Source: a virus
Lineage: Duplodnaviria > Caudoviricetes
Virus record (IMG/VR): IMGVR_UViG_3300005512_000199
Coordinates: 1-31,969 of that record
Reading direction: 5' to 3' (one strand)
DNA length: 31,969 nucleotides
The notes under the pieces are model-generated. The model ran no database searches. It saw only the letters and a list, made by a program, of their open reading frames with translations, and was not told the DNA's origin. Made by a program: the position numbers and the translations under genes. This document shows positions 3,481-9,466 of the stretch, piece after piece. Numbering within the stretch: position 1 is the first letter of the stretch; the number at the start of each line of letters is the position of its first letter.

Positions 3481-3503
3481 CGAAACGTCGGCACCTGTCG
3501 ATT

Positions 3504-3734
3504 AGGGTCGACACTTTGTCACAGCCAGTCTGAACGAGCCTGAGTCCCGATATTCGGTTACGGCTTCCAATTTCTCGATACGGACTCCGCCCGTCCGCGA
3601 GGGCGGGCTCGACCCTGGCTGCGAGGGGCAACTATCCGGAAACTCCGGATAGTTGCAGCCGGCACACTGTCTGGGGTCTATACGGGCGGATTGGGACTTC
3701 GATTCCTGATCCGCCCGATTCATATCAACAGACA
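3504..3734 (+). ncRNA. Candidate structured RNA / multi-hairpin intergenic element
   Basis: Stems: 3504-3511/3609-3616, 3542-3547/3582-3587, 3587-3592/3601-3606, perfect 13-bp 3628-3640/3644-3656, 14-bp 3683-3696/3704-3717 (G-U pairs favour + strand), 3668-3673/3729-3734. Confidence 0.35.
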
Positions 3735-3789: not shown

Positions 3790-3984
3790 TCACCTGATCT
3801 TGATTTGGTATCCGAGCTTCGCTCCTTCGAGGATGATACGGTCTAACTCGCGGACGTGCTTGTTCCCTGGACGGAGCTTGATGTAGAGGTCGTCTGGATC
3901 GTAGCCGTCGAGCTTGCAGGCTGCAGCCCAGAGGCGGCGAGCCTTGTCGGTCAGGATCCGGTGAAGGGTGTCTTGGTACTTCAT
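3790..3984 (-). CDS. Hypothetical early protein
   Basis: 64 aa; RBS AAGGAG upstream; ATGA coupling to upstream ORF. Confidence 0.7.
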   Translation of the reverse strand: MKYQDTLHRILTDKARRLWAAACKLDGYDPDDLYIKLRPGNKHVRELDRIILEGAKLGYQIKIR

Positions 3985-4136
3985 CGACGTCGCTCCTTGA
4001 GGCGTCGCTCCACGCCGTTCGTGAGGTGATAGCTGATGAACATGAGAGCGGTCAGCGTGCCGACCAGGATGTACGCTCCGAGCTCCTTGGTCGCAGCCGG
4101 AATCACGATGTGCTCGATGATGGCGTCTTCGATCAT
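3981..4136 (-). CDS. Small single-TM membrane protein
   Basis: Start MIEDAII at 4136 overlapping upstream stop; hydrophobic LGAYILVGTLTALMFISY. Confidence 0.6.
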   Translation of the reverse strand: MIEDAIIEHIVIPAATKELGAYILVGTLTALMFISYHLTNGVERRLKERRR

Positions 4137-4734: not shown

Positions 4735-4748
4735 CGGTCGTGCTCCTT

Positions 4749-4943: not shown

Positions 4944-5156
4944 CGGTCGTGCTCCTTGATTCGGTCGAGCCCCATGCCCGACAAGTAGATCATCGGGTAT
5001 TCCGGCCCCATTGTCCACACCTTTCCCGAAGAATCTGGAAGATTCTCGATTCTTTGGGATTTCTTCCCAAAGGGGTGGACATTCGCCGATTCTCTGGTAT
5101 GATCTGGGTGTCGAAGGCATGGGGCCGACGACGACCAGAACAAGGAGCCGACCATG
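4941..5156. promoter_or_regulatory. Divergent early promoter region with mirrored promoters/leaders and central palindromes
   Basis: Right: TGGACA(5076-5081)-16 nt-TATGAT(5098-5103) with extended -10 TG; left: TGGACA (5017-5012)-17 nt-GATGAT; inverted repeats 5030-5046 and 5052-5072. Confidence 0.7.
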
Positions 5157-5387
5157 AAGGTCTCGTTCGAAAACAACATCACCAACGACGGCGAAGCCGT
5201 CATCGCCTTCTCCATCGATCAGGAGGCCGAGGCTCAAGCCTTCGCGGCCAAGATGAAGAAGGAAACGGGACGACACATCGTTTCCCAGATCGCTCGACGA
5301 GGCGAGATGCACCGATGCTGGTGCGTCGTCGAGATCCGCGAGATCGTCCGAACGCCGGTAATCCATTCGGTGCCGGTTGCAAGCTGA
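5154..5387 (+). CDS. Hypothetical early protein
   Basis: 77 aa, RBS AAGGAG, first gene of rightward operon. Confidence 0.7.
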   Translation: MKVSFENNITNDGEAVIAFSIDQEAEAQAFAAKMKKETGRHIVSQIARRGEMHRCWCVVEIREIVRTPVIHSVPVAS

Positions 5388-6913: not shown

Positions 6914-7204
6914 ATGGAACACCTGAACCGCGTGACCGATCCGTGGACGTCGAAGGCGGCGGCCGATTCGGTCAAGATGAAGATCGCCGGCCTCGAGCGG
7001 ATGATCGTCGAGACGATCGCCGAGCAGGGTCCGCAGACCTCGAGCGAGATCCAGCACGAGCTCGAGCAGGCTGGCAGGATCGCAGCGACGACAAGGATTC
7101 ACAAGCGGATGGCCGGTCTGATCCGACAGGGTAGGATCTCCGCGATCGGCATTCGTCGTGATCCGTTCTCGGGACGGATGGCGACCCTCTACGCCGCGTG
7201 CTAG
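6914..7204 (+). CDS. Winged-helix DNA-binding protein
   Basis: RxTDPxTSxxAA N-terminal motif plus GPQTSSEI...RMAGLIRQGRI wHTH pattern; RBS AAGGAG. Confidence 0.7.
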   Translation: MEHLNRVTDPWTSKAAADSVKMKIAGLERMIVETIAEQGPQTSSEIQHELEQAGRIAATTRIHKRMAGLIRQGRISAIGIRRDPFSGRMATLYAAC

Positions 7205-7207
7205 GAT

Positions 7208-7297
7208 GATGCCGGCGGAGGAGCGACCGCCGACATCTGACGCCCCATGTCTCGCCGCCTCCCGTGCCTTCGCTCCTTGCGCACGGTGAGGCGGCGA
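7208..7297 (+). promoter_or_regulatory. Two-hairpin element with complementary loops (kissing-loop candidate) in initiator leader
   Basis: Hairpin 1 7208-7237, loop AGGAGCGA (7219-7226); hairpin 2 7252-7297, loop contains TCGCTCCT (7270-7277). Confidence 0.6.
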
Positions 7298-7313
7298 TCT
7301 TTCGGGAGGACCA

Positions 7314-8297
7314 ATGCTAGACGGTGCCTTCACTTCTCCGAAGATCCGGCGGCTCGCCGTCGTGCTCGGCGTGCCATGGCCGCACGCCCTCGGCCTCGCC
7401 GGCCTCCTCTGGCGGTTCGCCGCCAAGCACGCACCGACCGGCGAGATCGGTCTGCACGACGACGAGGAGATCGCGGCGGCCCTCGAATGGCCGGGCGACG
7501 CCGGCGACCTGGTCGCCGCTCTCGTCCGATGCCGCCTCCTCGATCCGACAGATTCCGCCGCGAGACTGCTCGTCCACGACTGGCCGGACCACGCTCCGAG
7601 GTACGTCTCGGCCACGCTGAAGCGACAGAAACTGGCGTTTTCTCGGGAGTATTCGGTGAACGTGGTAGACGCGCGCAAAGCGCGCGATCGCGCGATGACT
7701 ACAGTCCCCACTACAGTGGCCACTACAGTGGGGACTACAGACCGCACTGCAGACGGGACTACCTATACCTCCTCCTCCTCCTCCGCCTCCGCCTCTTCCG
7801 GCTGCGCCGCGCATAGACCAGATCCGACGGTGAATTTGACGGCGCGCGCACAAGAGATCATCCAGAGCCACGAGAACGCCCCACAGGGCGTTCCCGCGTC
7901 TCGGACGATCGAGGAGCCGTCTGAGCCAAGAAACGCGAGAGACGGGATCCTCCGGCCTCTGGCAGCAAGCGTCTGGGAAGCCTATCTCCCGGGCCGGAAG
8001 ACCGGAAAGAAGACCGCGATCGGCTGCATCGTGAAACAAATTCACGAAGTCGCGCGACGCGACCGGATCCCACCGGCAGATGCCGCCGCCAAGATCCGCC
8101 AGGCGGTCGAGGCCGACGTCGCTCGGATGGTCGAGCGGATCCGGACCGGCGAGACCGAGCTCAAGTTCTGCCCACAGGGCCTGACCTACTTCAGACAGGA
8201 GCGATGGAACGATGACGACCAAGGACCGACCGATCACGACGTCCGCGACGCACGGATCGATGACGAGATCCGGCGAGCCCGTGCCGACCTGGGATGA
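7314..8297 (+). CDS. Phage replication initiator (lambda O-like organisation)
   Basis: N-terminal SPKIRRLA..GLLW..LVHDWPDH; low-complexity linker with DNA iterons; C-terminal WEAYLPGRK...PQGLTYFRQERWND motif; GGAGG RBS. Confidence 0.75.
   Translation: MLDGAFTSPKIRRLAVVLGVPWPHALGLAGLLWRFAAKHAPTGEIGLHDDEEIAAALEWPGDAGDLVAALVRCRLLDPTDSAARLLVHDWPDHAPRYVSATLKRQKLAFSREYSVNVVDARKARDRAMTTVPTTVATTVGTTDRTADGTTYTSSSSSASASSGCAAHRPDPTVNLTARAQEIIQSHENAPQGVPASRTIEEPSEPRNARDGILRPLAASVWEAYLPGRKTGKKTAIGCIVKQIHEVARRDRIPPADAAAKIRQAVEADVARMVERIRTGETELKFCPQGLTYFRQERWNDDDQGPTDHDVRDARIDDEIRRARADLG
7698..7763 (+). repeat. 12-bp period iterons (putative replication origin)
   Basis: ACTACAGTCCCC/ACTACAGTGGCC/ACTACAGTGGGG/ACTACAGACCGC/ACTGCAGACGGG/ACTACC within the initiator gene. 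Confidence 0.75.
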
Positions 8298-8781: not shown

Positions 8782-9260
8782 AGAAGCTAACGCGGAACCA
8801 GATCGCAGACGCCGCCGTCCGCCGATGGTGCAGGTTCTACGAGCTCACGCCGTACTTCTGGAACGCGAACCCAGAGACCTCGCGATGTTCGATCCTTCGA
8901 AAAAATGAAAGCACCAAGCGTCTGCGACGACGACCGTCGTCGGTCCAGTACGGCGAACCCGAAGACCGAGCCGATTGTATGGCGATGATCGTCGGAACGC
9001 TTTTCGTCAAAGGCTTCGACGCCTACGAGCTCGGCGAACTGCTCGAGATCTCGACCAGCACCGCTTGGCTCTATCGCCAGCAGTACCTCGACATGCCGAA
9101 CGAATCTCGCCGCGCTCTCATCCAGCTTGACGGCGAGAAGGCTCGCGAGTTCTACGAGTCCATCATCGAGCACCACAAGGCCGATCAGACCGAGCGGCTT
9201 ATGAAGACCCGCGCTCTCATTGATAAGACGAAGCAACAAAAGAAAAGGAGCACGCGATGA
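8778..9260 (+). CDS. Hypothetical protein, possible HTH
   Basis: GGAGG RBS, ATGA coupling; FDAYELGELLEISTSTAWLY resembles an HTH. Confidence 0.6.
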   Translation: MKKLTRNQIADAAVRRWCRFYELTPYFWNANPETSRCSILRKNESTKRLRRRPSSVQYGEPEDRADCMAMIVGTLFVKGFDAYELGELLEISTSTAWLYRQQYLDMPNESRRALIQLDGEKAREFYESIIEHHKADQTERLMKTRALIDKTKQQKKRSTR

Positions 9261-9466
9261 CCGACAAACACGAGTGGAAGTTCACGGAAGCTCTGAAGGA
9301 CTGGCGACGATCAATGAAGGGACGACCGCCGGCGAAGGACTTCGGGGAACTCGCCTACTGGCACTCGAACACGATGGTCCGCTATCGCAACCTCACCTCG
9401 GCACAATGCCGACGCATCGTCGAGATCGTCGACGCCGACCTTCTCAGGAGTGACGATGACAAATAG
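9257..9466 (+). CDS. Hypothetical protein
   Basis: 69 aa, AAGGAG RBS, ATGA coupling. Confidence 0.65.
   Translation: MTDKHEWKFTEALKDWRRSMKGRPPAKDFGELAYWHSNTMVRYRNLTSAQCRRIVEIVDADLLRSDDDK

Follow-up and report, generated by a model that had tools for sequence, protein, structure and literature searches.

Kissing hairpins with covarying loops ahead of a phage replication initiator: a candidate RNA for joint silencing of early genes

What is the function of two adjacent hairpins, with loops complementary to each other over 8 bp, that lie just before the replication initiator gene of a tailed phage? The sequence analysed, referred to as the window, is the whole 31,969-nt virus record IMGVR_UViG_3300005512_000199 (Caudoviricetes) from an uncultured phage. 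Divergent early promoters at 5017-4989 (- strand) and 5076-5103 (+ strand) have small early genes on both sides. Past these the order is a RecT-like gene, an excisionase-like HTH gene, a gene for 96 amino acids, the two-hairpin element, the initiator, a RusA-like resolvase, and head and tail genes. The 96-residue gene (6914-7204, + strand) belongs to phrog_1123, of unknown function. The first gene downstream of the element (7314-8297, + strand; phrog_9474) matches the PHROG replication initiation protein at E 7.5e-22, as expected from the preliminary description. No integrase or repressor family was found among the 47 window ORFs scanned with PHROGs. Sequence comparison argues for a real, conserved and previously undescribed RNA element. 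The main reading, to which a probability of about 0.5 is given, is that it is a trans-acting RNA of about 90 nt that blocks early-gene translation and whose seed is masked by its own decoy loop.

The first hairpin, H1 (7208-7237, + strand), presents an SD-like decoy loop, AGGAGCGA, at 7219-7226 and has a predicted energy of -15.5 kcal/mol (z -4.1). The second, H2 (7252-7297, + strand), is a 16-bp stem with a 13-nt anti-RBS loop at 7268-7280 that contains the presumed seed, TCGCTCCT, at 7270-7277; its energy is -33.7 kcal/mol (z -6.3). For each hairpin, none of 200 shuffles folded as well, and loop 2 stays mostly unpaired in the nested fold. Both the hairpins and the exact complementarity of their loops are thus as first described. 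The core of H1 is a 6-bp stem (7213-7232, + strand) extendable to 7208-7237; among relatives the inner pairs, 7213-7218 with 7227-7232, are well kept and the outer pairs, including a C-A mismatch, are not. A mostly unpaired linker of 19 nt (7233-7251, + strand) joins the hairpins; it is A/C-rich in the window's clade and 14-25 nt long in 20 distinct elements. H2 is followed by a short U-rich tail, TCTTTC (7298-7303, + strand), then by the initiator RBS, GGGAGG (7304-7309, + strand), with the ATG at 7314. The H1/H2 kiss was the sole loop-loop match of at least 7 bp in the 32-kb window by a hairpin-pair detector of incomplete sensitivity (the kisses of two relatives, L018 and L093, escaped it). 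In dinucleotide shuffles a match of at least 8 bp arose in 2 of 150 and one of at least 7 bp in 14 of 150.

Searches with the initiator gave 78 loci including the window (labelled by L-numbers); each has an N-terminal domain at least 64% identical and upstream DNA that could be used. Duplicates, all distant matches and six close loci whose upstream DNA was scarce or absent were left out; many of the 78 are near-copies, and the distinct leaders number 55. A motif-plus-fold scan, written after the first cases had been seen, picked out 38 loci: 31 have both hairpins, 4 have H2 alone, and in the remaining 3 a single hairpin forms by direct pairing of the two motifs. The element is counted in 35 of the 78 (the 31 and the 4). 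Many of the 40 negatives are too short to judge, and the sequences of the three from the window's clade stop within 0.82 kb and so do not reach the position that the element has in most of their sisters. On a quick initiator tree the element occurs in the window's clade (support 100), the L018/L093 clade (99), L101/L102, L117/L120, L122 and L026. Seven loci with the early RBS AAGGAGC were at first scored as having no element before the initiator; the prediction that it would lie further upstream held in all seven, at 0.85-1.35 kb. A covariance model run on 100 loci returned 23 strong + strand matches, all previously known, and missed the H2-only forms. On 50 whole viral records it returned two known elements, a leftward module of L015 and two weak matches. 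A pattern scan of viral contigs gave 28 loci, two of them real (the records of L015 and L018) and 26 without two hairpins, and a search with the upstream gene yielded no further relative.

The element is independent of its neighbours. Its end always lies 10-60 nt upstream of a start codon, the upstream gene varies among lineages, and in 12 of the 31 two-hairpin loci another gene stands between the element and the initiator. In 11 loci that gene encodes a C5 DNA methylase, with PF00145 confirmed on 2, and in L069 it encodes Mom (PF25680). Since the next gene can be the initiator, a C5 methylase or Mom, the element is not an initiator-specific leader. The slot between the element and the initiator (L062-L075, L088, L099) is a hot spot for DNA-modification genes, the C5 methylase or Mom in each case overlapping the initiator start.

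The kiss is kept among relatives through compensatory changes in the loops. The loop pairs are AGGAGCGA/TCGCTCCT in the window's clade, AGGAGCAA/TTGCTCCT in L018, AGGAGCAT/ATGCTCCT in L091, GATGGAG/CTCCATC in L120, GAGGAG/CTCCTC in L117 and GGAGCG/CGCTCC in L122. In an alignment of 19 copies, 92% of the kiss cells are paired and 12 cells have both sides changed, which no shuffle reached (0/500); the number of pairs with double changes is not significant (98/500). In a smaller alignment the covariation score of the kiss is not significant (88/500), the register used there having taken in one extra outer pair and left out the eighth. Loops pair better with their own partners than with swapped ones (8 of 5040 permutations as exceptions, with seven hand-delimited loop types), and the loop changes reduce to roughly three to five independent changes. 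The eighth seed position of L091 and L093 tracks loop 1 and not the early RBSs. The 3' TTG of loop 2 has no Watson-Crick partner in loop 1, yet pairs with early RBSs. Because four loci have H2 without H1, the anti-RBS loop is the constant part of the element. In L120 and L121 the complementarity between H1 and the tip of H2 spans their full length, and the kiss could therefore turn into an extended duplex, the form preferred by the fold.

Several features point to an RNA read from the + strand. Across 21 distinct copies, H2 has 35 G·U pairs on the + strand and 2 on the - strand, with mean energies of -32.5 and -26.5 kcal/mol. This bias indicates that the RNA is the + strand and not an antisense transcript. 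A putative extended -10 box of the form TG-n-TAGGAT, TGCTAGGAT, lies at 7199-7207 (+ strand), where the preliminary description had placed it. Its hexamer is at 7202-7207, and the gene at 6914-7204 uses the TAG within it as its stop codon. The consensus promoter scan of the window did not list this box. A TAnnnT hexamer was nevertheless found in the 50-nt stretch searched upstream of all 23 distinct elements, in seven variants, compared to a frequency of 0.002 per base in the window, and its TA differs from the upstream stop codon in 7 of the 14 loci examined. L101 and L102 have TTGACA 16 nt before the hexamer (TTGACA-16-TAGACT); the window's own -35 is poor, at 3 of 6. The start of the transcript would be at about 7213-7215, where conservation of the outer H1 pairs, C-A mismatch included, is lost among relatives.

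H2 has the GC-rich stem of an intrinsic terminator, but its loop is 13 nt against a criterion of 3-8 nt, and 4 of the next 8 nt are T against a criterion of at least 5. The terminator scan made no call at this weak, terminator-like tail, and read-through past 7298-7303 is likely. Among 23 elements the T count in the 8 nt after H2 ranges from 0 to 5, some counts being lowered by extension of the stem into the U run. With a U tail so short and weak, both an RNA of about 90 nt and read-through are plausible, and a discrete RNA may not exist. Two metatranscriptome contig sets contain 16% and 6% of the words, as low-depth contigs of a relative with no listed piece over the element; their loose ends at 7314 show a different sequence before that relative's initiator.

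Loop 2 matches the RBSs of early genes in both divergent operons. On the - strand the predicted targets are 3990-3999, the RBS of the leftward gene 3984-3790 (10-nt match; 11 nt in L015 and L071), 4742-4748, the RBS of gene 4734-4405 (7 nt), and 4951-4958, the RBS of the first leftward gene, 4943-4749 (DUF1391; 8 nt). On the + strand the RBS of the first rightward gene, 5154-5387, matches over 8 nt at 5141-5148. A possible target outside the early region is the RBS of gene 9257-9466 at 9245-9251 (+ strand), with a 7-nt match that reaches 9 nt in L015 and L071. The first of these sites had already been noted as 3990-3998 and proposed as a site of action in trans; the match is real, slightly longer, and action on early RBSs is the best-supported part of that earlier reading. 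An 11-nt match at 3817-3827 was rejected as a target, being inside a coding sequence and not kept in L015.

The correspondence between loop 2 and early RBSs extends to the relatives. L018 has six early genes matching its own loop 2 over 12 nt, L093 has four at 10 nt, and L101 and L102 have matches of 8-9 nt. In seven element-bearing phages, at least 7 Watson-Crick pairs with the cognate loop were found at 39 of 81 early starts and 8 of 138 others; these counts rest on rough automatic gene calls, with one artefact row dropped (an antisense ORF over the element in L102; it was 40/82 before). As a control, a stand-in loop was set against 128 early starts from 11 element-less phages, and 6 of them made 7 or more pairs. 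Four of the six are in L081, in which no element was found and 4 of 13 early starts have a 7-nt match. The early RBS AAGGAGC is shared by at least two starts in 12 of 16 element loci, the other four having less than 2.7 kb of upstream DNA, and in 0 of 15 loci without the element. There are 56 AAGGAGC starts in the 68 kb upstream of elements and 2 in 84 kb where the element is absent. The upstream DNA suffices for this comparison in only about three independent lineages, so the Fisher p-values overstate the case. Lineages without the element use other repeated early RBS motifs, and since sister phages differ in this way an unusual host 16S tail is an unlikely cause. In searches for the host, the initiator had only distant matches in genome collections (38-49% identity, several phyla), weak matches in 8 of 401 sampled genomes of one phylum, and the capsid matched at 40% identity or less.

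Predicted energies separate targets from non-targets poorly in the window, with the exception of gene 3984. The kiss is worth -13.3 kcal/mol for 8 pairs. One of the four early sites clearly beats it (-17.7 kcal/mol), and the others range from -12.2 to -14.5; the non-early starts 28540 and 9716 reach -14.0 and -13.4. The initiator RBS makes only 4 Watson-Crick pairs with loop 2, at -8.0 kcal/mol. Pairing of the H2 5' arm with the initiator RBS was also considered and rejected, because a hairpin of -34 kcal/mol would have to melt.

Since loop 2 is complementary both to loop 1 and to the early RBSs, the element is likely a small RNA that would switch the early genes off together as replication starts. 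The putative promoter would give either a + strand RNA of about 90 nt or the 5' end of the replication-operon message. Loop 2 would then pair in trans with the AAGGAGC RBS shared by early genes, and their translation would be shut down jointly. The kiss would act as a built-in guard, with loop 1 covering 8 of the seed bases. The unpaired 3' bases of loop 2 (TTG or TGT) could serve as a toehold for the longer early sites, (A)CAAGGAGC, and not for ordinary SD sequences. As the promoter also points into the replication genes, such a unit would make early translation end as replication begins.

The same pairing could be used the other way round. Early messages might bind loop 2 of a cis leader, break the kiss and alter read-through into the next gene, or its translation, whether this is the initiator, the methylase or Mom. 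This explanation, which includes a switch of loop 2 between the kiss and the RBS, is on the whole unlikely, and the two roles may coexist. The element's end 10-60 nt before a start codon in every case and its weak U tail suit a leader. Predicted pairing between the linker and the downstream RBS region in L018, L089, L091, L120 and L122 points the same way, since a kiss presumably needs a stretched linker and the two pairings could hardly form together. In the window's clade, however, the A/C-rich linker pairs with the RBS over 3-4 bp at most, and the linker is unchanged where the downstream gene and its RBS have been replaced (L018 versus L088, L091 versus L099). The kiss-RBS switch as first proposed for the window phage is not borne out: its 4 pairs stand against the 8 of the kiss, and other genes so often intervene before the initiator. 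It may operate in six of the 35 loci (L088, L099, L019, L102, L101 and L026), whose next gene has an RBS with a 6-10 nt match to loop 2. A purely intramolecular role, as a promoter with a terminator or attenuator whose RNA is stabilised by the kiss, would make the early-RBS match a by-product of ancestry or of SD-like composition. Plain GC-rich hairpins at the corresponding position in element-less relatives, the stricter covariation of loop 2 with loop 1 than with the RBSs, and the small number of independent lineages are consistent with it. It is nonetheless improbable, as it leaves unexplained the TTG(T) beyond the kiss, the six 12-nt matches of L018, the H2-only forms and the excess of AAGGAGC starts upstream of elements.

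Proteins of the CsrA/RsmA type prefer GGA in a loop, and a single GGA loop would be a poor sponge. H1 does show GGA in its hairpin loop, and the early RBS motif is longer than an ordinary SD sequence, as would be expected if early RBSs and loop 1 bound such a protein or a phage protein and H1 were a sponge masked by loop 2. The one GGA loop speaks against this, as do the four loci that keep loop 2 and matching RBSs without H1, and a protein-mediated role is very improbable. An antisense RNA from the - strand, suggested in the preliminary description, or a pRNA-like oligomer held together by the two loops is just as hard to credit. The window segment 7199-7330 taken alone does fold better on the - strand (-68.9 kcal/mol, z -4.75) than on the + strand (-60.1, z -2.75), and kissing within and between molecules look the same in sequence. 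The G·U bias and mean H2 energies across copies run the other way and count against the antisense proposal; the -10 box and U tail are in the + orientation, the C-A mismatch falls at the inferred 5' end, Rfam gives no match, and the locus is far from the packaging genes. The trans-acting RNA remains the preferred reading.

No named RNA family was matched, in line with the initial impression. No Rfam 15 family, 6C and C4 types included, gave a gathering-score match in the window, and the best E values for 7100-7400 were 3.2 and 7.8. The literature searched, which took in few subscription papers, gave no description of it, and nothing like it appears in the available part of a 2025 review of phage sRNAs (PMC12197685). 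By analogy, and as far as the accessible portions of the cited papers go, it would work most like the 6C-type loop sRNAs and the P4 CI and P1 C4 RNAs, its layout recalls the Start Associated Sequences (SAS) of cluster K mycobacteriophages, and the tests run place it in none of these groups. Actinobacterial 6C sRNA, and S. aureus RNAIII as described with it, use an exposed pyrimidine-rich loop to pair with the RBSs of several mRNAs without a chaperone and repress translation (PMC6486639). An exposed loop with such predicted pairing is present here, whereas 6C is host-encoded, has more than one C-rich loop, has no self-complementary decoy loop in the description consulted, and has no Rfam match here. 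P4 CI RNA (seqA/seqC), a processing product of a primary transcript, brings about termination within its own operon (PMC4825925), and P1 C4 antisense RNA represses icd/ant in its own operon (PMC8198154). Like these, the element would be a small RNA encoded by a phage, lying before replication or lytic genes and pairing with complementary sequences on either side of itself. The upstream site in the same transcript is present as loop 1 in 31 of 35 loci. A downstream one, the next gene's RBS, is found in the six loci named above and not in the window; the initiator RBS of L071 has a 7-nt match. In contrast to P4 and P1, most predicted targets here are the RBSs of upstream genes in two divergent operons, and Rfam gave no match.

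The IncI-alpha repZ pseudoknot and the Inc antisense RNAs, to which the element had been likened, also involve loop-mediated long-range pairing upstream of a replication initiator (PMC8383071). Control of that type is not supported: there is no sign of a cis antisense RNA, no minus-strand promoter was called near the element, and its position in the rep leader is not fixed, a methylase or Mom gene intervening as described above. Lambda OOP RNA is also a small RNA with its own promoter (pO), linked to the control of phage DNA replication and acting on an early regulator; it is antisense to the single cII message, whereas the candidate RNA is sense-strand with a short shared seed (available part of PMC12197685). 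The SAS of cluster K repeat an extended RBS-like motif ahead of many genes, and it includes conserved bases unable to pair with 16S rRNA. One reverse-orientation copy is not tied to a gene start, and the authors leave open whether RNA or protein binds the motif (PMC3203893). The six identical 12-nt sites of L018 and the reverse copy in its loop 2 resemble this layout; the window has a second reverse-type match, in the coding region at 3817-3827. The phage group and the sequence differ, the 13-bp cluster K consensus having only the AGGAGC core in common with the motif here. Here the reverse copy sits in a hairpin loop that covaries, and the unit also has a promoter box and an internal decoy loop; no such RNA is described for SAS in the portion of PMC3203893 consulted.

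Repeated start-associated motifs before small early genes are common to many phage genomes, and the element is a concrete, mutable candidate for their reader, with one loop, one decoy, several targets and natural compensatory variants. If the main reading is right, the early-to-replication switch would be timed by RNA only, in a phage where no repressor was found, through a natural self-gated antisense design. A broader and more doubtful reading is a phage-private address code for translation. Each lineage would have its own extended RBSs, all silenced by one RNA at the onset of replication with the decoy as a toehold gate that limits it to those extended sites, and seed, decoy and targets would co-evolve as a three-part lock; L107 and the leftward-operon module may have their own versions. 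If true, this would suggest a purpose for the mycobacteriophage SAS repeats.

Other possible anti-RBS sequences occur. At the end of the leftward early operon a conserved unpaired CTCCTTCC tract is followed by a 15-bp hairpin (window 3780-3735, - strand; L015 6740-6852, - strand; also L071), possibly a second anti-RBS module, and the tract also occurs in the linkers of L117 and L120. When analogous RNAs were sought in 24 element-less loci, the one good candidate was that of L107 and L021; about 150-80 nt before the initiator these have a -10-like box, CTCCTTTCT as an unpaired tract, and a U6 terminator. Early genes of L107 have an RBS, AGAAAGGAG, that this tract matches, and the unit may be a loop-less version of the same idea. 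The element-less L024, L027, L109, L077 and L103 lineages each have their own homogenised early RBS (GAAAGGAAGAAGACC, GAAAGGAAT/C), and no matching anti-RBS RNA was found near their initiators.

Just before the initiator of L025, L113 and L116 lies a single TTCG-closed hairpin made by direct pairing of the two kissing motifs, possibly a collapsed form of the element; the 4.9 kb of L116 have no AAGGAGC early starts. The gene-poor region at 3500-3730 of the window, between converging operons, contains several strong hairpins, including a 13-bp palindrome near 3625-3660. Inside the initiator gene, at 7698-7755, five iteron-like repeats (ACTACAGT and variants) follow one another at an exact 12-nt spacing and are likely the replication origin.
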